In this document: piece by piece, positions 57-49,675 of the stretch
Numbering within the stretch: position 1 is the first letter of the stretch
How the letters are laid out: each line of letters starts with the position of its first letter
The notes under the pieces: model-generated
Told to the model about the DNA's origin: nothing
The model's database searches: none
The model's input: the letters and a program-made list of their open reading frames with translations, nothing else
Assembly: GCA_964489875.1 (NCBI GenBank)
Contig: CAZAZW010000001.1
Coordinates: 116,062-176,718 of the forward strand
Direction: 5' to 3'
DNA length: 60,657 bases
From: an uncultured Gammaproteobacteria bacterium
Lineage (GTDB): Bacteria > Patescibacteriota > Microgenomatia > Daviesbacterales > UBA10151
Made by a program: the position numbers and the translations under genes

Positions 57-1328
57 TTAAACATAGTCTCCACCAGATTTTCTGGGAAAATAACAGTAAA
101 TAAGGTATCCGGCAACACTGACAAATAAACTTTGGAATAAGCTCCTCGAAAGATTAAGATCAAGATTTATTCCAAGCAGCTGCCATAAACTAGACCCATT
201 ATATAGAAGAGGATTAAGAGGCGCAAACAACCCTATTGATAATGACTGCTCAAACAGAAGCACCGAACCCAAGAAACTAACTGCTATTACAAACATCAGG
301 AAGATATGTTTAAAATTGCTGCGAATAAGTTCGATAATTAAAAAGGGAGTAATCCATAGAAACCACTGAGGATGATAATGTGTAAATACAAAAAATAAAA
401 GCAGGATTATCAAAAATCTTTGCCATAAGTTTTCTGCTTTTTCTGCCTGATACAGGCAAATAAAATAAAACAGCCCAACTAAACTTAAGAATAAAATAAT
501 ACTTTCACCACCTGATACGGGAATTTGCGCATACAGGCTTTTCAAGGTTTGGTTTGCAACTAAAGCCGTTGACCTAAACCCGAAAGAGCCGATAAAAGGA
601 AGTATTGTCGCCAAATAAACCACCCCTCCTAAAAAAATAACCAATATGCGTTTGAGCCAGGTATTCAGAAGAAAAGCAAGCGGGGGAAGTAATAATAAAG
701 GATATATTTTAAATGATGCACCTAACCCTAAAAAAATGGCAGCCAGAAATACTCCTTTGTCAAGATTTGCTCTCCTGGTAATCATATATAGAGCAAGCAC
801 TACAAAAGTTGTGGGAATAATGTCAAATTGACCCATCATGTAAGTAGAATAAAGCACCCAGGGGTTAAAGATCCAAAAAGTAAATGCTAAAACTTTTTCT
901 TTTTTAGTAACAAATAAATTATATAGAAGGAATGATGTAGCAATATCGAAAGGTAGGTACGGAATTTTAAGTAAAATTAAGTACAAATATAGTCTTGCAT
1001 CTCCTAAAGTATCCTTAAAATCAAATAAGAACTTATTATGAAAACTTTGATCTGTCAAACCTGTCAATATCCAATTTATAGTTCCTATAGAAAAATATAC
1101 GGCAGGCGGATAGTTGAATAAGTCAACTGGGTACTTTTTTAAAAGTTCATTATCCCTATTTAAACTGTATGTATAATCATAAAAATTTGATACATTCCCT
1201 TTACCAATCACATAACCTGCCAGATCGAAATGCACAATATCCGGGTGAAATGTAACGGCCGACAAAACCAGCCTCAGTAAAATACCTATTAACAAAACAA
1301 AAATTAAAGGTTTTCTTAAAAAGCTCAT
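57..1328 (-). CDS. GT-C fold membrane glycosyltransferase (GT87/PIG-M/DUF2029-like)
   Basis: Multi-TM protein with an acidic first loop (FHPDI), FNYPP, KIPYLPFD, FNP...GQFD, K-YP and HPQW motifs. Confidence 0.75.
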   Translation of the reverse strand: MSFLRKPLIFVLLIGILLRLVLSAVTFHPDIVHFDLAGYVIGKGNVSNFYDYTYSLNRDNELLKKYPVDLFNYPPAVYFSIGTINWILTGLTDQSFHNKFLFDFKDTLGDARLYLYLILLKIPYLPFDIATSFLLYNLFVTKKEKVLAFTFWIFNPWVLYSTYMMGQFDIIPTTFVVLALYMITRRANLDKGVFLAAIFLGLGASFKIYPLLLLPPLAFLLNTWLKRILVIFLGGVVYLATILPFIGSFGFRSTALVANQTLKSLYAQIPVSGGESIILFLSLVGLFYFICLYQAEKAENLWQRFLIILLLFFVFTHYHPQWFLWITPFLIIELIRSNFKHIFLMFVIAVSFLGSVLLFEQSLSIGLFAPLNPLLYNGSSLWQLLGINLDLNLSRSLFQSLFVSVAGYLIYCYFPRKSGGDYV

Positions 1329-2968
1329 ATCAATACTACTATTAATGATACTAAAAAAGCCCCCAAAGAAACAAAGTTTAATAAATTCCTAAAACTTGTT
1401 TCTTTGAAGTAAATCTCTGCTTTGTGAAACCCCGCAGGCATTTGGATGATCACTTGTCCATATGGCTTTCCTGCCAAAACTTCTGCAGATTTCCCATCAA
1501 TTTTTGCCTGCCAACCAGGAAAATAGTATTTGCTTAAGTTAATTAAACTTTCTCTATCTGAATTATATTCGAATACTATCCTTAAATCATTTAATTTTTC
1601 AACTCTGTTTATTCCTTCGATAGGGAAAAGTAAAGGAAAATTTACATCCGGCCTTTTTTCAGTTGCTTTTGGCAGTCTTAAATATTCTTCTTGAGTTTTC
1701 TTATACTCTTCACTGGCAACAGGATAGGGGATATAGCGACTAAGAAAATAGTCATCTTTTCTGCCTAAAAAATCTTGTGGTCTAAAATAAATTAGTCCAG
1801 GTAAAACTATTATTAAAAGAGCAAATACTAAAAAATGCTTTTCAATTCTTAATTTATCAAACATTATTAATAGTAAAGGAATGAAAAAAGTTGTTAAAAT
1901 TAAAAATCTCCAGGGAAATTGGAAATAGGGTAGCTGCGGCAGGTTAATCCACAGAAAAACAGAGCGATGATTCATCAGAAAGATTGCTACTAGCGCGGCA
2001 CTTAAAGCCCAGGCAATCAATATTTTTTTCTGATTTTCTATCTTCTTCCATTTCAGTAAAAACAAGAAAGTTGCTGCTACCAAAATTAAAATATTGGCTG
2101 CACCCAAAAAGAAAGACATGCCGTCTCCCGGCCCGGGAACAGAACCACCATATCCCCAATAAGGCGTTATAAGTTGTAAAAAGGTGGGAAAATGATCAGC
2201 GAAATTAAATACCGTATCATATTTCATTAAGCTACTCTCCCTTAATGCAGGCAACCAAAAATAGCTGCTGACAAAAAGACCTAGAAAAACCATTGAAAAC
2301 GTTTTAACCAAATACGCCCATCGGGCCGGGTGAGAAAAAAACTGCAAAATAAACAGCAGTCCTACAAAAGGAAAAAACATATATGCTGTTATATTGTGCG
2401 ACAACACTAGGGAAGCCAGAGAAAGCGCACCAATCCCGATCCATTTGAGACTTTTATCCCGGTAAAGCTTAACAACTGATAAAACAATCAATGGCATAAA
2501 CATAAAGCTGACAATCTCCCCTATTGCGCCTCTGATATATAAATCTACTGCTCTATAGGGCGTATAAATATATAAAACTGCCCCGATTAAACTTAAACTA
2601 CTTCCTATAAATTGCCGAAGAAGCAAATACATAAATATCCCTGAAAGCGGAATACTGATAAAAAAAACAGCTTTTATGCTGTCTACAAATGACAGGCCTA
2701 AAAGATGAAAAGTCTCTCCCAAATAAAATGGCAGCGGAAAAACGAAATTAAATAAAGGATAACCAAATCCAAAGCTTAAATCCGGCACAAATCGGGGAGG
2801 AATTTGACCAGTCATTAACGTTTTATGAAACTCATATAACCAAGCTATATGGATATCATCGGATGCGCCGTAATACCCCGGGACAAATAAAGCCCAGCTA
2901 GCTGGAATCGATAACAAAAATATGGTAATAATCCAAAATTTACTTAAAAATTTTTCTAGTCTTTGCAT
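1325..2968 (-). CDS. GT-C membrane protein (YfhO / '6-pyruvoyl-tetrahydropterin synthase-related' membrane family)
   Basis: SDD acidic loop, RFVPDL-FGFGYPLFNF, YRAVDLYIRGA, QFPWRF and YFPGW motifs; paralog of the next two genes. Confidence 0.75.
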   Translation of the reverse strand: MQRLEKFLSKFWIITIFLLSIPASWALFVPGYYGASDDIHIAWLYEFHKTLMTGQIPPRFVPDLSFGFGYPLFNFVFPLPFYLGETFHLLGLSFVDSIKAVFFISIPLSGIFMYLLLRQFIGSSLSLIGAVLYIYTPYRAVDLYIRGAIGEIVSFMFMPLIVLSVVKLYRDKSLKWIGIGALSLASLVLSHNITAYMFFPFVGLLFILQFFSHPARWAYLVKTFSMVFLGLFVSSYFWLPALRESSLMKYDTVFNFADHFPTFLQLITPYWGYGGSVPGPGDGMSFFLGAANILILVAATFLFLLKWKKIENQKKILIAWALSAALVAIFLMNHRSVFLWINLPQLPYFQFPWRFLILTTFFIPLLLIMFDKLRIEKHFLVFALLIIVLPGLIYFRPQDFLGRKDDYFLSRYIPYPVASEEYKKTQEEYLRLPKATEKRPDVNFPLLFPIEGINRVEKLNDLRIVFEYNSDRESLINLSKYYFPGWQAKIDGKSAEVLAGKPYGQVIIQMPAGFHKAEIYFKETSFRNLLNFVSLGAFLVSLIVVLI

Positions 2969-4604
2969 AAAAAGTTAGGTAAAAGATAATTAGCAATGAT
3001 AAAAAAGAAATTGTGTTACTTGCAGTTCTAATAGGTGTATTTGTAAGCCTCCCTAAAATTAAATGCCTACCGGGTTGCAGACTTATGCTTATCCTTTTTA
3101 CGTAATTATCATTTGTGTGTTCAATCTCTTTTCCTGTTTCATAAACCTTCCAGTTTGGAAAATCCATTATGGGCATTTCTACTTTAGCAGTAGATGTAAC
3201 ATCTAAATCTAGTTTCCAACTATTAGATTTTTTCTCAAAACTTTTAATTTCTGCTTTTCCAGTTTCAATGATTGGTTTATCTGGCGCAGGCTCAAGGGGT
3301 TCTCCTGCCCCAACCGGTAAATAATCTAAAATCGATGCTTTCTGTTGCGTCTCCCAAGCTTTACCAGAAAGTTTTGCCTGATCTGTTAAATCAAAAATAA
3401 ATTCCTGGGGCTTAAAAAAATTCCAATTAAATAGTACTGTTATTATCATTAAAATAAAAGCAATCATTTTCCCTAAAGACTGTTTAAAACAGTAAACCAG
3501 GCATCCTCCTAAAAGCGATGTTGCAAAAATTGTCACAGCCAAAAATCTCCAGGGAAACTGTGCAAACCTTAAGATTCCAACTGCCTCCCAAATAAAAGCT
3601 GATTTATTGTGTGTCATAAAAATCGATAAAACAAAAATTAACAAGATAATTATGGAAAAAAACAAAAATTTTTTATCTTTACGTTTTAATAGCAGTAGCA
3701 GAGGTAGCGGGAAAAAAACCAAAATCCAATGCGGCCAACCTATCTGAAAAGATATCGTATCACTGGGTCCGGGAAATGATGCTCCATATCCCCAACTTCT
3801 ATCAAAAAGCAGTTGTGAAACTGTCGCAAAATGAGCTCGGAAGTCTAAATCAAACCTGACTAAATTATCTATTTGCACTAAATCCTTTTCAAAGTAGGCG
3901 GGTAAAGTGAAAAAAGCTGATAAACCTAAACCTAAAATAAATCCATAAACTATCCATCTGATATTTCCTGCTCCTTCCATAAAAAGCCAGTAGATAATCA
4001 TTAAAATTAAAAGAGGCAAAAAAAACAGAGTCATAATGGTATGACTGGTTAAGAAAGCCGCTAGAGAGACTGAAAAGAGAACTAAATATTTTCTAGATTG
4101 TTCTTTAATTAACTTTAAAGCAAAATATGCAACCAGAGGAATTATCGCAATCGCGAAACTTTCAGATACTGCTCCCCTCACATAAGTATCCAAAGCTCGG
4201 TAAGGGGCAAACATGTATAAAATTCCTGCAAAAAATCCTCCTGTTTTACCAAATATTTCTTTTGCTAAAAAGTACATTGCAATAGGCGCCAGGAGCAATG
4301 GAATAAAAAATAAAATCTTTGCAGAAATAATAAATGGCAGGAAAAAACTTAAAACTCCGCCAATATAATACGGCAGAGGATTGTAGTAGTTAAAAAGCGG
4401 ATAACCATTCCCATACCCCATATCCGGCACCCATCTACAAGGAATTTGCAAATCCTGCAGACAACGCCTCATCTCAAATATTCTCATTATTTGTAAATCA
4501 TCATGGTGGGAAAAATATCCCTGTAGAAAAAGCGGCCATACAGTAAATGATGACAATATTAAGATTATAGAGATTGGCCAATGTTTAAGTAGAATGTTTT
4601 TCAT
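2940..4604 (-). CDS. GT-C membrane protein (YfhO-like), paralog 2
   Basis: HDD loop, RWVPDMGYGNGYPLF, YRALDTYVRGA, QFPWRF and FPNW motifs. Confidence 0.75.
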   Translation of the reverse strand: MKNILLKHWPISIILILSSFTVWPLFLQGYFSHHDDLQIMRIFEMRRCLQDLQIPCRWVPDMGYGNGYPLFNYYNPLPYYIGGVLSFFLPFIISAKILFFIPLLLAPIAMYFLAKEIFGKTGGFFAGILYMFAPYRALDTYVRGAVSESFAIAIIPLVAYFALKLIKEQSRKYLVLFSVSLAAFLTSHTIMTLFFLPLLILMIIYWLFMEGAGNIRWIVYGFILGLGLSAFFTLPAYFEKDLVQIDNLVRFDLDFRAHFATVSQLLFDRSWGYGASFPGPSDTISFQIGWPHWILVFFPLPLLLLLKRKDKKFLFFSIIILLIFVLSIFMTHNKSAFIWEAVGILRFAQFPWRFLAVTIFATSLLGGCLVYCFKQSLGKMIAFILMIITVLFNWNFFKPQEFIFDLTDQAKLSGKAWETQQKASILDYLPVGAGEPLEPAPDKPIIETGKAEIKSFEKKSNSWKLDLDVTSTAKVEMPIMDFPNWKVYETGKEIEHTNDNYVKRISISLQPGRHLILGRLTNTPIRTASNTISFLSLLIIFYLTFYAKTRKIFK

Positions 4605-44579: not shown

Positions 44580-45170
44580 TCATTTTTTTTGCCATTCTCT
44601 TCCGGGTTCCACTTCCCCACTTAAAATTAAATCAACAGCCTGCTTATGCCAGTCAAATTTTGTAATGTGGTAAACCCTCTTAAAATATTTTAACGCATCC
44701 TGTGCTCCCGGTACACCCTTGGCTTGAGCCAGCGCATCCAAATTATCAGCAGCCTTTACTAACCTGGCCTCTATAGATTGCCTATCGTTGTATTCTTCAA
44801 CCAGTTCTATTATTTCCTCTTTTGAATCAAGTCCTTCAACTAAAGCCTTCACCCCTTCTTCCTCAATATTTTTGAAAACCCCTCCGGCCATACCTTTAAC
44901 AAAAGTCCCCACATCCCCCACTATTGTTTCTCCCACATCATGGAAAAGCCCCATTTTTAAAACTTTCTCGGGGTCAATTTTAATTCCTTCTTTTTGTAAC
45001 TCCTTTGCCAAAAAATAAGCGAGCAGCGCTGTCACAAAAGAATGTGCTGCCACCGAATCTGCCTCATTCCTTTTAAACCCCAAGGCAATAAAGCCTTGCC
45101 TCGGCAACTCCTTTGCCCACTGCAAAGTTAGAAAAACTTTTAGTATTTTTTTTAGATCATTAACATTCAT
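44580..45170 (-). CDS. HD-domain hydrolase (YfbR/HDDC2-like 5'-deoxynucleotidase family)
   Basis: DSVAAHSF, LFHDVGETIVGD and VKAADNLD motifs; ATG overlaps the lysS stop. Confidence 0.8.
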   Translation of the reverse strand: MNVNDLKKILKVFLTLQWAKELPRQGFIALGFKRNEADSVAAHSFVTALLAYFLAKELQKEGIKIDPEKVLKMGLFHDVGETIVGDVGTFVKGMAGGVFKNIEEEGVKALVEGLDSKEEIIELVEEYNDRQSIEARLVKAADNLDALAQAKGVPGAQDALKYFKRVYHITKFDWHKQAVDLILSGEVEPGREWQKK

Positions 45171-46732
45171 TTTATAGCTTCCTGTAAACGCCTGATCACA
45201 TCTTCTTTTGGATACTGCAATAAAAACCAAGCCGCTTTTGGACCAAATTCCTTACCTATTAAGGTAATATAAATAGCAGAAAAAGCTTTCTTTGCATCAA
45301 CTTTTAACTTTTTAGTCAAATTATATAAAGCAAGCTGTAATTTTTCAGGATCATTATTTTTCTCGATCAAACCAATAGCTTGTTTGAGAAATTGCCTTTG
45401 CTCCGCAGTTAGCTCTTTGGCTTTTTCCGGCAAATCTTTACTTAAACTTAGACTAAATTCCTCTGGAGCATATTTTTCCAGCCAAATTTTTGCATACCTT
45501 GCTCTTTCATTGATTATCTTGATTTCTTCTTCTGATAACTTTCCATCATTTATTTCTTCATATTTTTTCAGGACATCAACATTAGGCATTTGGACATAAT
45601 TTACAACATCCCGAAATCTTGGCAGAAGAGTTTTTTCTTTAGGAGGCAATTTACCTATTTGAGACATCTCAAATGTTCTTACTAAATCCTGATCAGAATT
45701 TTCAATGTAGGCCCGGTAACATCTGTCATATTCATCAAAAAGATCAGGTATTGCCATGGTATCAACCGGATCAAATTCCACTGCTTGCCGAAAGTCAGTT
45801 CGGCAAAATAAAAACCTGCCAACCTCTAAAGGGAGCAAGTCGGTCAAATCCCGACCTCGGAGCCCCAAACCTTTTGATGAGGCCATCTTTTTACCGCCAA
45901 TTAAGAAAAACTCATAAGGCAAATTGTAAGGCTCATTAATCCGAAAAACTTCTTTAACAAGATCCTTAGCAATATCTCTTGACCCGCCGGCTGAGGAGTG
46001 ATCTTTACCCGCACCCTCTATAGTAATTCCCAGTACCATCCAATGCGCCGGCCAATCAACTTTCCAGGGTAGTTTCCCATTCCCCCCAAAAGGAGAAATC
46101 CTGCCAGTATAAGCACAACCCTCTGCCCATTTAACCATCTCTTTCTCACAGGTATAGGCAACAGTTTTGCCGTCCCAGCCGTGAACTCTGGTCGTACCCA
46201 ATTTGCCGCAGTTTTGACAGATTACTTGTAAAGGCAGCCAGCCTTTTTCTTTCTTTTTACTACCGCTAACTTTTTGATAAATATCCTGAATTTTGTCTGC
46301 ATTATCCAAGGCGATTTTAATCGCCTGATCAAATTTACCCTCGTGATATAAATCCCAGGAAGAATAATATTCTGGCTTTACCCCTAAGCTTTCCAGTACC
46401 CTTTTAAAATCATCAGCGAAGAAGTCTCCGAAAGAGGCAAAACCTTCTTTGGGAGAAGGAGCTTTTTTTAAAGGAAAACCTAAATATTTTGAGAAATCTT
46501 TTTCTAAATCCTCTGGTAATCCGTCAATTGGGTCAAAATCATTAATTACAAAACTAAAAGTTGCCTCCTGAACGCTATGTTTTAAAGCCTTATAGATTAG
46601 ATCATGAACCAATGGCCCTCTTAAAGAACCAATATGAGCAAAACCAGAAGGGGTAAACATATCATCCACCCAATATGGCTTGTACTTTTTTGAATCAATT
46701 ATTTCTTTTGCAACTCTATCAGCCCAATACAT
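45167..46732 (-). CDS. lysS: Class I lysine--tRNA ligase
   Basis: PSGFAHIGSLRG (HIGH), KLPWKVDWP, EGAGKDH, KMASSKG (KMSKS) and GPKAAWFL motifs. Confidence 0.93.
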   Translation of the reverse strand: MYWADRVAKEIIDSKKYKPYWVDDMFTPSGFAHIGSLRGPLVHDLIYKALKHSVQEATFSFVINDFDPIDGLPEDLEKDFSKYLGFPLKKAPSPKEGFASFGDFFADDFKRVLESLGVKPEYYSSWDLYHEGKFDQAIKIALDNADKIQDIYQKVSGSKKKEKGWLPLQVICQNCGKLGTTRVHGWDGKTVAYTCEKEMVKWAEGCAYTGRISPFGGNGKLPWKVDWPAHWMVLGITIEGAGKDHSSAGGSRDIAKDLVKEVFRINEPYNLPYEFFLIGGKKMASSKGLGLRGRDLTDLLPLEVGRFLFCRTDFRQAVEFDPVDTMAIPDLFDEYDRCYRAYIENSDQDLVRTFEMSQIGKLPPKEKTLLPRFRDVVNYVQMPNVDVLKKYEEINDGKLSEEEIKIINERARYAKIWLEKYAPEEFSLSLSKDLPEKAKELTAEQRQFLKQAIGLIEKNNDPEKLQLALYNLTKKLKVDAKKAFSAIYITLIGKEFGPKAAWFLLQYPKEDVIRRLQEAIK

Positions 46733-46786
46733 GAGTAGAGTATAACCTTACCCTGCAGTTTTGACAATGAAGAGTAGCCGTATATA

Positions 46787-47593
46787 TTACACTGTGGGAG
46801 ATTGCAACCCTACGATCGTACCATATCTTCCCAGTTCGGGTTCGGGTAATACAGGAAAAGATCTGCTTGGCCTATAACCATTCTCAAGTCTATCTACAAA
46901 TAGGCTCCATGAACGTTGACTGCCTGCACCACCTTGCGCTCGGAGGAATTCACTATTTACCAACAGGACCGGTTGAATATCACCCATAACAACATCCAGT
47001 TCCTTCAAATTATTAGCATTCATCGTTTCTCCGCTATCGACTATTACTACGGCCGCTTCGGCTAAACGACCAGCTAATTGCCCCTCCTCCTTACCAGTCA
47101 CTGTTCCTATAACCGGCATCTTTTTTTTATCTTCTACGTGCTTTAGAAAATACATCTTTGTGAGTGCCGGATAACTAGTGATTACTCTTTGTTTTTCCAA
47201 ATCTTCTACCTCTTGGTATGGCTTATCACTATTATCGTCCCCCTTTCTAACTAAGAGACTTAGTCTAATAGTTGGACTAAACAGAAAAAACCTAGCTATC
47301 GATTCCACTTTTGGAACTTCTCTCTCAGGTCGAGAAGCCGAATATTCGGCAAATAGCTCGCTCCCCACAAATCCAGCTGTAAAAAATCCTTGTTCTACCT
47401 GTCTAATAATATCTCTTTGATTTACAACAGTTAGATCTACCGGCAACTCCTCCACAGCCGCATGAAGACCACCATTTTGTTCCCAATGAAAATCAAAACC
47501 CTTATTACCAAGCATTCTTTCAATTGCAGGTCTTATATGCTTACCTGCTGGTATGGCTACTCCTGTTCGATCACGTTCTTTAATATTAACCAT
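46787..47593 (-). CDS. Divergent short-form ATP phosphoribosyltransferase (HisG)-like protein
   Basis: RDI, GFVG, RLSL, RVITSYP, GKEE and IVDSGETMNANNLKEL align to the HisG catalytic fold. Start taken at ATG 47593; the upstream extension in the ORF track is AT-rich intergenic DNA. Confidence 0.75.
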   Translation of the reverse strand: MVNIKERDRTGVAIPAGKHIRPAIERMLGNKGFDFHWEQNGGLHAAVEELPVDLTVVNQRDIIRQVEQGFFTAGFVGSELFAEYSASRPEREVPKVESIARFFLFSPTIRLSLLVRKGDDNSDKPYQEVEDLEKQRVITSYPALTKMYFLKHVEDKKKMPVIGTVTGKEEGQLAGRLAEAAVVIVDSGETMNANNLKELDVVMGDIQPVLLVNSEFLRAQGGAGSQRSWSLFVDRLENGYRPSRSFPVLPEPELGRYGTIVGLQSPTV

Positions 47594-47777
47594 AATTTTC
47601 TTACATATACAAATACCCCTAACATGTAGGGGAATTTTGCAATCATATTGTATCACAAGAATACTATAATACAAGATGCAAATTGCGTATATTATTGTAA
47701 GAATATTGTAAGAATTAAAACTTTTAATTAAACGGAGACTTGATAATATGCCTGAAATTATGCTATACTTCCGCACT

Positions 47778-48314
47778 ATGGGACTGCAAGAACTACAACC
47801 AGACTTAGAACGGATATACGATACTATTATTGCAAGGAGAGATCAGGTGCCTCAAGACCCGAAATCAACAACGATCAGATTATTAAACACCGGTTGGGTA
47901 TCCACAGCAGACCAAACAGTTGATACAGCAGGTAAACTAGTAAAACCTTTTAGTATTGGAGATAAATTAGTAGAAGAGGCATGTGAGGTTACAAAAGCAT
48001 TAAAAAGGGATGATATTACGCTTGAATCCTCACAGGCTATTTTCTATATAGAAGTTGGATTAGTAAAAGAGGGTTGGACTAACAATGATTTATTTAAATC
48101 AATTGATCAAGTTGCTGAAGAACAAACCTTAGCTGTTGTAGCACCAGATAAGGTGGCAGAACATGCGGGAGCTGCTGTTGCAAGAGTAGCGCTTGCAGGG
48201 GTAAGTGGAAATCGCGAATTACTACTACAACGCAGTGCGGAAGCTGTAATCGGACTAAATAGGTTTTGGGAAGCTAATGGTATTTCTCCTGCTGAAGTCG
48301 GCAAAAAAATATAA
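47778..48314 (+). CDS. Divergent phosphoribosyl-ATP pyrophosphohydrolase (HisE)-like protein with a degenerate tandem second copy
   Basis: LERIYDTIIARR...SxTxRLL..G...DKLVEEACEV...LES, then a second KVAEH...NRELLLQRSAE...GISPAEV unit. ATG 47778 is 8 nt after TGCTATACT. Confidence 0.7.
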   Translation: MGLQELQPDLERIYDTIIARRDQVPQDPKSTTIRLLNTGWVSTADQTVDTAGKLVKPFSIGDKLVEEACEVTKALKRDDITLESSQAIFYIEVGLVKEGWTNNDLFKSIDQVAEEQTLAVVAPDKVAEHAGAAVARVALAGVSGNRELLLQRSAEAVIGLNRFWEANGISPAEVGKKI

Positions 48315-48319
48315 AGCTA

Positions 48320-49675
48320 TTAAATTCGTGCATTCATCTTGTTTAAAGTTTTAGACAGCCGCTCAAAACTGTTTAAGTCAGCATTTTGCTTAATAAATTC
48401 TTCGGCCTCTTTATACGATCCTTTTTGCAGAAGATAAACCAATTTATACGTCATTTCTTCAATTTCAAAGAAAATTTTTGAAAAATTAGGCCAGGAAATA
48501 CCTGAATTTACTCCTAATGCGCCGTGAGACAGGTAGGAATTAAGGAGTAGGGAATTCCCAAGAATATGGTTTTGTTTGGAAGCATTCTCTTTGAAAAGCA
48601 ACCAGTCAGCTAGCATCCAGAGTATATGAATAATAATGATGGCCTCAAGATTATCTTGAGATAATGACCCCTTAACAACCAGGTGCTTACTGTGTTCTAT
48701 GCCTGATGCAAAACCATTAGCTTCATCCAGCGGGCCATATAATTCTTGCAGTCTTTCCCTTGCTGCTTCGAACCTGTGTAATTGTTTACCCAGCTCGTAA
48801 AGAAATATACACCAACGTGTTGCCTCTAAAAGTAATTCCCTGGAATATTTCGATGAGAACCTTTTTTCAAAAATAGTTTGAAAAATTGGGTAGTATAGCT
48901 TGTCAAATTTTAATCTGTATTGTGAGGTATAAATTATAGTTTTGGAACCATATTTTAAAGCTGCTGCCAAATCAGCCGGAAAGTGTTGTCCGGAGGAAAG
49001 CACATCTGCCGGATATCCTGATATTGCCGTAACAGTTTCAACAAATACACTTACTCCCTTTTTAGCGATATCTGTAGAATGATATTTTCCAGAACTTATT
49101 TTTGCTGAACTGTATAAAGTATCTTTGTGCTTTTCTGCAAGTTCTGTATGTTTCATATCTATAATTCCTACATGCGCCTGAAATGATCTTTTAATGAAAA
49201 GTGTCCTGTCCAAATGTCTTTCAAAAGGACCGATATTAAAATCTATTTTGGAATTTTTGACGCTTAACCATTGCCTATAAGCCTCTTCATAGCTACCATC
49301 AAGCATAGCTCTAGCTTGAGCTCTTAGATAAGACTTAAATGATTGATTTGTACAAACATCCGCAGCTTTTTCTATTTTTTTAGCTATAGGTTCCAAATAT
49401 TTGGCATAGTGGTTGTGATAGAAGATCGCCTCTAGGCTACCGTTTTTCTCTTCTATAAAAGTAAAGGGCGAAAGTATTTCAGGATTTTTTTTCGCGGCTT
49501 TCTCCAGCTGCGCCTTCGTAACTGTTCTAGGGTAAAAACCCTTTTCAAGCTGAAGTTTGTATAACCGAGAAATATCCTTTACTACCTCCTCAAGAATCTT
49601 AACTAAAGATTTATCCTCTTGGGATAAATTTGCGTAAATTTTTCTATCAATAGCAAACTTCCGATAAACCATCAT
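48320..49675 (-). CDS. Peptidase M49 (DPP-III)-like protein lacking the zinc ligands
   Basis: GFYP, LSPFT, IDFNIGPFE...KRSFQA match the family. The HExxH position reads YELGK and the EEAK position reads DEAN. Confidence 0.65.
   Translation of the reverse strand: MMVYRKFAIDRKIYANLSQEDKSLVKILEEVVKDISRLYKLQLEKGFYPRTVTKAQLEKAAKKNPEILSPFTFIEEKNGSLEAIFYHNHYAKYLEPIAKKIEKAADVCTNQSFKSYLRAQARAMLDGSYEEAYRQWLSVKNSKIDFNIGPFERHLDRTLFIKRSFQAHVGIIDMKHTELAEKHKDTLYSSAKISSGKYHSTDIAKKGVSVFVETVTAISGYPADVLSSGQHFPADLAAALKYGSKTIIYTSQYRLKFDKLYYPIFQTIFEKRFSSKYSRELLLEATRWCIFLYELGKQLHRFEAARERLQELYGPLDEANGFASGIEHSKHLVVKGSLSQDNLEAIIIIHILWMLADWLLFKENASKQNHILGNSLLLNSYLSHGALGVNSGISWPNFSKIFFEIEEMTYKLVYLLQKGSYKEAEEFIKQNADLNSFERLSKTLNKMNARI

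Follow-up and report, generated by a model that had tools for sequence, protein, structure and literature searches.

What use could a bacterium have for descendants of two histidine-biosynthesis genes when the pathway itself is absent? This question is raised by positions 46787-48314 of a 60,657-nucleotide stretch of DNA (the window; C1:116062-176718 of the host assembly) from a groundwater bacterium of the Candidatus Daviesbacteria with a tiny genome, where two intact genes on opposite strands, encoding a HisG-like and a HisE-like protein, diverge from a shared spacer. We find that the HisG-like protein is a genuine HisG homolog, that both genes are true orphans, and that the HisG-like clade is a real, undescribed variant of the ATP phosphoribosyltransferases (ATP-PRTs) with an optional HisE partner. 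Since its substrate pocket appears to have been rebuilt and its gene carries a conserved control element of its own, the HisG-like protein probably does a new job.

A previous reading of the letters alone (the sequence-only reading) had described a head-to-head gene pair around an AT-rich spacer of 184 bp, and this arrangement was confirmed with both genes intact and their starts corrected (Table 1). The HisG-like open reading frame had been listed from a GTG at 47776 (329 aa). Its homologs (253-296 aa, N-terminus MVVNSRERDR...) begin at the position equivalent to the ATG at 47593, and this codon was therefore assigned as the start. The HisE-like protein starts at the ATG at 47778, and its length is shared with six of nine homologs.

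Table 1. Features of the divergent locus and its flanking genes (window coordinates).
Feature	Position	Strand	Basis or remark
HisG-like protein, 268 aa	46787..47593	-	short-form ATP-PRT catalytic core, no HisG_C/ACT
Divergent spacer, 184 bp	47594..47777	.	27.7% GC vs 39% in the window
Leader hairpin CCCCUACAUGUUAGGGG, 6-bp stem, 5-nt loop	47616..47632	-	fold, conserved position
Extended -10 promoter element of the HisG-like gene, TTGTGATACAAT (TGnTACAAT)	47647..47658	-	consensus match, conserved
Promoter-like site of the HisE-like gene, TTGATA-18-TATACT with TG	47740..47769	+	weak: such sites no commoner than in shuffles
HisE-derived protein, 178 aa	47778..48314	+	NCBIfam, phmmer, AlphaFold2/Foldseek to HisE
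DPP3/M49-like protein, 451 aa	48320..49675	-	phmmer 6eom E 2e-25, 5zum; no Pfam match
Class I lysyl-tRNA synthetase (lysS)	45167..46732	-	Pfam tRNA-synt_1f E 1e-88; conserved downstream neighbour

The histidine pathway is missing from the host genome

The sequence-only reading had noted that no other his genes lie in the window, and had asked for a search of the rest of the genome. The observation holds for the window and extends to the whole assembly (891 kb in 8 contigs, 83.6% complete). Pfam models for HisI (PRA-CH) and HisD (Histidinol_dh) had no match anywhere in the assembly, whereas all 14 control genomes were positive, and tblastn with the complete his operon of the related species G007 retrieved no HisD, HisB or HisA. 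The same search found a single histidyl-tRNA synthetase (HisRS), and as this is the only HisRS-like gene, the assembly encodes no HisZ. The only His_biosynth match (C1:9718-10401) is part of a HisF/HisH pair at C1:9688-11177, outside the window, which lies inside a nonulosonic-acid/lipopolysaccharide sugar cluster and adjoins an N-acetyl-sugar amidotransferase-like gene, a non-histidine use for which these paralogs are known. A histidine pathway elsewhere in the host genome was thus rejected, and in a genome without one the HisG-like and HisE-like genes are true orphans.

Ordinary histidine biosynthesis, with the other his genes hidden in the 16% of the genome that is not assembled or their products supplied by a host, could be argued from the incompleteness of the assembly, yet it is hardly conceivable. 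Members of this HisG-like clade occur in the relatives G094 and G095 (each 100% complete) and G068 (97%), from which HisI and HisE are missing as well, so that assembly gaps do not explain the absent genes. In addition, the active-site residues are non-canonical, and neither HisZ nor an ACT domain is present. Among 96 species genomes of the order, some form of HisG was found in 27, HisI in 15, PRA-PH in 16, and a true his operon in about 13, indicating that the ancestor probably had such an operon. Replacement of a missing type I phosphoribosyltransferase by the HisG-like protein was also considered and rejected, as the genomes that carry it have 3-5 Pribosyltran matches, the same as in relatives.

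A HisG homolog with a rebuilt substrate cleft

The HisG-like protein matched Pfam PF01634 with an E-value of 5e-18 (66 bits, cut-off 25.5), while its score against the NCBIfam hisG equivalog TIGR00070 (74.2 bits) fell slightly below the cut-off of 75.75. Searches with phmmer returned ATP-PRT structures of Campylobacter, Vibrio, Lactococcus and E. coli. The AlphaFold2 model (mean predicted local distance difference test score, pLDDT, 82; predicted template modelling score 0.77) gave ATP-PRTs only among its top 50 matches in the PDB, with a template modelling score (TM) on target of up to 0.85 for the catalytic core of the C. jejuni enzyme (e.g., 5ubh). There was no match to the HisG_C/ACT-like domain in the protein; in the model, the C-terminus consists of one helix (residues 223-238) and a disordered tail (244-268). 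By sequence and fold the protein is thus a member of the HisG family, whereas it misses the equivalog (same-function) threshold and is without the canonical residues, a his pathway in the genome and a regulatory module (HisZ or HisG_C). HisG requires either HisZ, in the short form, or the ACT-like HisG_C domain, in the long form, for activation or histidine feedback.

In a maximum-likelihood tree, the HisG-like sequences form two sister clades, a derived one of 24 rows and an intermediate one of 6 rows (SH-aLRT 99 for each), and both stand apart from all canonical HisG sequences, including those of Daviesbacteria his operons. Residues were compared between 34 clade members and 64 canonical HisG sequences (Table 2). 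All members of the derived clade have other residues in place of the canonical K16, R19, R41, R58, D72, C109 and D183, among them the Lys and Arg of the N-terminal QKSGR loop, and a new invariant set is found instead (K18/H19, N40-G41..H44, R116, K168-E169 and D186), such that for the charges that were lost, positive as well as negative, new ones have appeared in the same cleft. Common to derived and canonical sequences are the catalytic or ribose-binding Glu (E170), the phosphate loop S/T187-G188-x-T/A190, N194, R110 and T139-x-Y-P, and the motifs GKEEG, VIVDxG, NG..H, R110 and R116 are invariant in the HisG-like clade. In the intermediate clade, G-H-N, N-G..H, [KG]-E-E and A183 are already in place beside the canonical R58, D72, C109 and P116, whereas R116 and D186 were added on top of these changes in the derived members. 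As the intermediate clade has only part of the replacements, the change was stepwise. These patterns support the view that the active site was systematically rebuilt rather than randomly decayed.

Table 2. Positions at which the derived clade departs from canonical HisG.
Position	Canonical HisG	Derived clade
16	K	D/A
18	G	K
19	R	H/N
41	R	G
44	variable	H
58	R	N/K/H/G
72	D	variable
109	C	L/V/I
116	P	R
168-169	S-V	K-E
183	D	V
186	S	D/N

The deviation at conserved residues that the sequence-only reading ascribed to both proteins therefore stands for the HisG-like protein, but only in part for the HisE-like protein, where EExxE...ExxQ matches actinobacterial HisE.

A loss of seven canonical residues may also mark an inactive protein. 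The HisG-like protein would then be a non-catalytic pseudoenzyme, serving on its periplasmic-binding-protein-like fold as a regulatory subunit or as a sensor, for example of PRPP (5-phosphoribosyl pyrophosphate), AMP, ATP or histidine status; the HisE-like enzyme would then have a house-cleaning role and no connection with it. The fast evolution of the gene, typical of pseudoenzymes, and its occurrence without HisE in most genomes fit this explanation, and the same pathway offers a precedent in HisZ, a catalytically dead HisRS paralog (PMC9734150). HisZ was recruited to non-catalytic ligand sensing, but it has a different fold and no homology to the HisG-like protein, and is thus an analogy for the pseudoenzyme alternative only. 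However, new invariant charges have appeared in the cleft one for one (K18, H19, H44, R116, K168, E169 and D186) and the catalytic Glu and phosphate loop are invariant, suggesting that the site has been remodelled and works, and is not dead; moreover, no partner protein was identified. We consider a pseudoenzyme unlikely, if a serious contender. If it were one, it would mirror HisZ: there a synthetase paralog regulates HisG, and here a HisG paralog would have taken another role.

Distribution and selection

A word-index search of 5.8 billion proteins gave 16 members of the HisG-like clade, and a profile search of 1.84 billion representatives gave about 17 clusters at E < 1e-30, followed by a gap to 1e-21. 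Since the clade profile recovered only 899 of these representatives at E <= 1e-3, the clade is distant from most HisG. It was found only in Microgenomates/Daviesbacteria, and among the 96 genomes of the order a clade A/intermediate HisG-like gene is present in eight (G000, G077, G093, G094, G095, G048, G011 and G068). G068 had appeared to carry a frameshifted pseudogene because of two overlapping matches; this was rejected, as the gene is an intact open reading frame of 284 aa with a Pfam HisG match at E 4e-25.

No stop codons or frameshifts were detected in about 40 HisG-like sequences across several genera, and the reading frames remain intact across genera at 42-66% identity. The ratio of nonsynonymous to synonymous substitution rates (dN/dS) was 0.25-0.54 for the HisG-like gene and 0.12-0.40 for the HisE-like gene, compared to 0.04-0.16 for the neighbours. 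Constraint on the HisG-like gene is thus relaxed but real; purifying selection acts on both genes, clearly more weakly than on the housekeeping neighbours, and neither is a pseudogene. The sequence-only reading had allowed for decaying pseudogenes with dN/dS near 1, and the intact frames and values of 0.12-0.54 settle this point in favour of maintained genes. Between the window and the close strain L042, the greA, DPP3-like and HisE-like proteins are 94-96% identical (dN/dS 0.10-0.12), whereas the HisG-like protein is 66% identical (dN/dS 0.48). For other pairs, dN/dS was 0.25-0.44 for HisG-like, 0.21-0.36 for HisE-like and 0.04-0.16 for neighbouring genes. The divergence from L042 is concentrated in a mosaic block at 47100-47600 (codons 1-165), where DNA identity is 0.64-0.69 as compared to 0.90-0.99 on both sides. 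As dS is raised in this block (0.65-0.74 against a background of 0.2-0.3), it is likely an imported diverged allele acquired by recombination. The same codons are, however, also the fastest-evolving part between L042 and L043 (omega 0.48), and very fast in-situ evolution is the alternative.

Relaxed constraint and a patchy distribution, with the gene lost from most of the order, might also be expected if both genes were relics of a lost his operon, drifting to loss and without present function. Full his operons are kept by about 13 genomes of the same order, and a canonical HisE-HisG-HisRS remnant without HisI persists in G084. On the other hand, dN/dS is well below 1 and the sequences are free of stops and frameshifts, motifs are invariant, and the promoter and hairpin described below are likewise maintained, with compensatory changes in the stems. 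Simple deletion from a co-directional hisG...hisIE operon such as that of G007 could not produce the divergent order, and candidate phyla radiation (CPR) genomes of about 1 Mb are not expected to retain dead genes for long. A relic is therefore very unlikely.

A predicted private promoter and a leader hairpin

Upstream of the HisG-like gene, the spacer holds an extended -10 element (consensus across loci TGnTAYAAT, window 47655..47647), of which the columns TGTG-TA-AAT are invariant in a six-locus alignment (A3) and which is also found at loci without HisE. A hairpin starts about 14 nt past the -10 element and ends 22 nt ahead of the HisG-like ATG; its motif occurs once in the 0.89-Mb genome. 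At each of the 11 clade A/intermediate loci checked, HisE-less ones included, the two elements precede the HisG-like gene in the same placement, and the hairpin is absent upstream of alternative occupants of this chromosomal slot. Comparing single-sequence folds between loci, the stems differ (CCCCTA/TAGGGG, CCCCC/GGGGG, CCCTATC/GATAGGG, CTCTAC/GTAGAG and CTCCC/GGGAG) and yet still pair, indicating compensatory changes. The spacer is 96-99% identical to that of L042, while the adjoining HisG-like coding sequence is 64-69% identical. A riboswitch, T-box or other known RNA in the spacer was rejected, since no Rfam family matched within 46000-49000 at E <= 1.

The downstream gene lysS has a conserved -10-like element of its own (46767..46739), about 7-8 nt before its ATG, and GGTATACT is conserved upstream of lysS elsewhere. 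As lysS has its own -10 and the hairpin travels only with the HisG-like gene, membership of the latter in a lysS operon was rejected, and the HisG-like gene appears to form a transcription unit of its own, with a 5' element that it does not share. On the other strand, the promoter-like block of the HisE-like gene is conserved in alignment A3. This site ends 8 nt before the ATG, and a leaderless or near-leaderless HisE-like mRNA is therefore predicted.

The HisE-derived protein and the question of pairing

The HisE homology of the 178-aa protein is weaker but real. Pfam, including PF01503, gave no match at E <= 1, although orthologs at 56-61% identity showed weak PF01503 matches. NCBIfam models of phosphoribosyl-ATP diphosphatase matched residues 58-107 and 122-176 (E 1e-6 and 5e-7), below the family thresholds (TIGR03188, 28.8 bits vs 42.7; NF001613, 29.7 vs 120), and phmmer retrieved the HisE structures 1yxb (Streptomyces) and 1y6x (M. 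tuberculosis), in an alignment that spans EEAxEV...E-S-S-Q-A-I-F-Y, the actinobacterial form of the motif. The AlphaFold2 model is all-alpha (pLDDT 93), and its sole meaningful Foldseek match in the PDB was M. tuberculosis HisE 1y6x (probability 1.00, TM 0.79 on target, 101 columns). In the family alignment, E66, E67, E70 and E83 are invariant and Q86 nearly so, and the motifs S-T-T..L and EExxE...ExxQ are kept. The MazG-like four-helix core and the metal-binding glutamates expected of HisE are thus present, whereas the usual size and context (about 90-110 aa or a HisIE fusion, together with hisI) are not, the protein being longer and the genome without hisI. To the four-helix core is added a 20-aa insertion forming a beta-hairpin (approximately residues 40-58), and the C-terminal helical hairpin (123-166) is a degenerate second HisE half-repeat, because of which the protein, as modelled, is probably a fused pseudo-dimer.

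The tandem HisE-like gene is found in only two of the eight HisG-like genomes (G000 and G077). Nevertheless, 10 of 11 HisE-like contexts lie on the opposite strand between the DPP3-like and HisG-like genes, or beside the DPP3-like gene on two short contigs that end there. The divergent layout recurs with two forms of HisE, the tandem form of 178-189 aa and a canonical PRA-PH of 112 aa (L003), and as the latter is found at the equivalent divergent site of a lineage in which the HisG-like protein has just 42% identity, an old association between HisE and the HisG-like gene can be argued. The view of the two genes as one repurposed system, taken in the sequence-only reading, was supported in part: the orphan status and the rebuilt HisG-like protein agree with repurposing, but as HisE is absent from six of the eight genomes and one ortholog (P0022) lies in a dTMP-synthesis operon, the partnership is recurrent but optional, and the genes are not an obligate pair.

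The position of P0022 also bears on whether the two genes have anything to do with each other. The HisE-like protein could be a MazG-type (d)NTP pyrophosphohydrolase (e.g., converting dUTP/dCTP to dUMP/dCMP for thymidylate) whose gene landed in a variable slot beside a functionally unrelated HisG-like gene. P0022, with 73% identity to the HisE-like protein, is the last gene of a dCTP deaminase-ThyA-DHFR cluster directly upstream of rpsB (L046, a logan SRR22388350 contig, 458-3041), a context that hints at a role in deoxynucleotide metabolism, and the corresponding locus of the host genome has an empty gap of about 700 bp where P0022 sits. The slot is variable across the order, and most HisG-like genomes are HisE-less. 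Unrelated neighbours would, however, leave unexplained the 10 of 11 contexts at the DPP3-like/HisG-like position and the canonical HisE in the same divergent place of the 42%-identity lineage, and by sequence and fold the HisE-like protein is closest to HisE, not to dUTPases or MazG. We regard this explanation as improbable.

A defence role, which the sequence-only reading had listed among the possible functions, found no support. PADLOC-DB gave no match for the HisG-like, HisE-like, DPP3-like and HD proteins and PHROGs no meaningful match, and the locus is syntenic housekeeping DNA; a defence system or phage origin was hence rejected.

Proposed function

We tentatively prefer, as a plausible explanation, that the HisG-like protein is a functional, repurposed hisG descendant of ATP-PRT fold with a 5-phosphoribosyl ligand, a changed acceptor or a sensing role, and a HisE-derived helper in some lineages. 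The hisG and hisE descendants would have been retained in one sub-lineage of the Candidatus Daviesbacteria without the histidine pathway. The short-form HisG-like protein, with its cleft rebuilt, would bind a 5-phosphoribosyl ligand and Mg2+ (PRPP or a phosphoribosyl nucleotide, as we infer), and would either sense this ligand or pass its ribosyl group on to an acceptor that is not ATP. A PRPP synthetase is encoded in the host genome. The HisG-like gene would be transcribed alone from its conserved extended -10 element, followed by the 5' hairpin as a candidate regulatory or stabilising element. In histidine biosynthesis, HisE cleaves pyrophosphate from the HisG product and thereby draws the reaction forward. 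The HisE-derived pyrophosphohydrolase, a putative fused pseudo-dimer with its metal-binding glutamates kept and divergently encoded in the lineage of the window, would, where present, most likely pull a reversible transfer forward in the same manner, by cleaving pyrophosphate off the nucleotide product, and would thus be an optional accessory and no required subunit.

Several findings weigh against this explanation. The residues aligned with the pyrophosphate-clamping Arg and the ribose-binding Asp are lost. In the HisGS of Psychrobacter, two arginines that matter for catalysis, Arg56 and Arg32, stabilise pyrophosphate as it leaves (PMC9734150), and by alignment these clamps appear to correspond to the arginines lost in the clade at positions 41 and 58; the proposed phosphoribosyl-nucleotide chemistry is less certain for this reason. 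Six of the eight HisG-like species genomes are without any HisE by Pfam and by family profile, the HisE-like ortholog P0022 occurs in its operon without HisG, and in most of the order the slot holds other genes, including a second DPP3 paralog, or nothing. Finally, dN/dS of the HisG-like gene is 3-5 times that of neighbouring genes, and its N-terminal 165 codons are 51% identical between strains with flanking genes that are 94-96% identical. A more specific version, in which the HisG-like protein actively transfers phosphoribosyl groups from PRPP to a new acceptor and, in lineages that have the fused HisE-like protein, makes together with it a new phosphoribosylated nucleotide or metabolite in CPR bacteria under control of the hairpin, appears rather unlikely.

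To our knowledge, all characterised ATP-PRTs serve one pathway and no non-histidine role has been described for the fold. The clade is therefore of interest as a clean natural experiment in the re-use of a committed-step enzyme, since the pathway was lost, the active site apparently rebuilt in a stepwise and charge-conserving manner, and a private promoter and hairpin kept. The metabolism of CPR bacteria is very sparse, and an active HisG-like protein would bring to it a new reaction of phosphoribosyl transfer.

Comparison with known enzymes

The two-domain core without ACT resembles that of the short-form enzymes HisGS (Psychrobacter arcticus 5m8h, Lactococcus lactis 1z7m and Thermotoga 1usy; TM 0.79-0.83 on target), with which the HisG-like protein shares the catalytic Glu, the phosphate loop S/T-G-x-T and TxYP. 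Unlike HisGS, it has neither a HisZ partner nor a his pathway in the genome; by alignment, its clamps, Asp72, Cys109, Asp183 and QKSGR loop appear replaced by the new invariant set, and it has an extra C-terminal helix and disordered tail and its own promoter and hairpin. The best matches by sequence and fold were long-form HisG of Campylobacter jejuni (4yb6/5ub9) and E. coli (1h3d), with a phmmer E-value of 1e-11, a Foldseek E-value of 3e-18 and 25% identity, but the HisG-like protein is without their C-terminal histidine-binding regulatory domain, scores too low for the NCBIfam equivalog, and departs from them at the active-site positions just named. The HisE-like protein shares with HisE/PRA-PH (M. 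tuberculosis 1y6x, Streptomyces 1yxb) the four-helix MazG-like core, EExxE...E-x-S-Q-L/I-x-Y and an N-terminal S-x-T..L, and differs from it in being about twice the size, in the 20-aa beta-hairpin insertion and degenerate second half-repeat, in having no adjacent hisI and in falling below the Pfam threshold. In the literature searched, no paper links HisG with CPR/Patescibacteria, or describes an orphan HisG in CPR bacteria or a "HisG-like" phosphoribosyltransferase.

A second type of orphan HisG was observed in genomes of the order without HisI, namely a long-form HisG with HisG_C directly upstream of HisRS. The gene orders are HisE-HisG-HisRS in G084 (L040, G084:C22) and HisG-NYN-HisRS-like in G047 (L036, G047:C3) and G036 (L039, G036:C10), and the long-form orphan HisG of G047 and G036 already has G-E-E, V183 and D/E186. 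A tRNA-His(GUG) gene adjoins HisG in G007 (L021, 2158-2229), where HisG is part of the full his operon, and in G036 (L022, 2813-2886), where it is the orphan HisG.

Gene neighbourhood

Around every member examined, the same array was found (H+-PPase, response regulator, histidine kinase, greA, DPP3-like, the slot, lysS, a YfbR-like HD protein, serS and secA), and the order greA-DPP3(-like)-slot-lysS is kept across the taxonomic order. The locus is a vertically inherited slot in a housekeeping array and not a mobile island. In genomes without the HisG-like gene, the slot was seen to hold a protein of about 280 aa with a weak GNAT match (E 1e-3 to 4e-3) or none (L082 2819-3676, L084 580-1410 and L083 2840-3709).

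The DPP3-like gene is conserved as the neighbour upstream of the slot and has a 4-nt overlap with greA. Its product is without the HExxH zinc motif, the HEISH of 6eom aligning to FLYEL, and may be a pseudo-peptidase coupled to GreA. Orthologs of at least 50% identity occur in 13 of the 96 genomes of the order, and a form of about 33% identity lies beside greA in about 40 more.

At the lysS position, lysyl-tRNA synthetase (LysRS) is of class I in G000, G077, G094, G011 and G014 and of class II in L003, G095, G093, G048, G068, L043 and L047; the loci L029, L030 and L033 were also part of this comparison. The two classes share the syntenic position and the leaderless -10 element, which points to in-place non-orthologous displacement, and this displacement is seen even between strains with flanking genes of about 93% identity.

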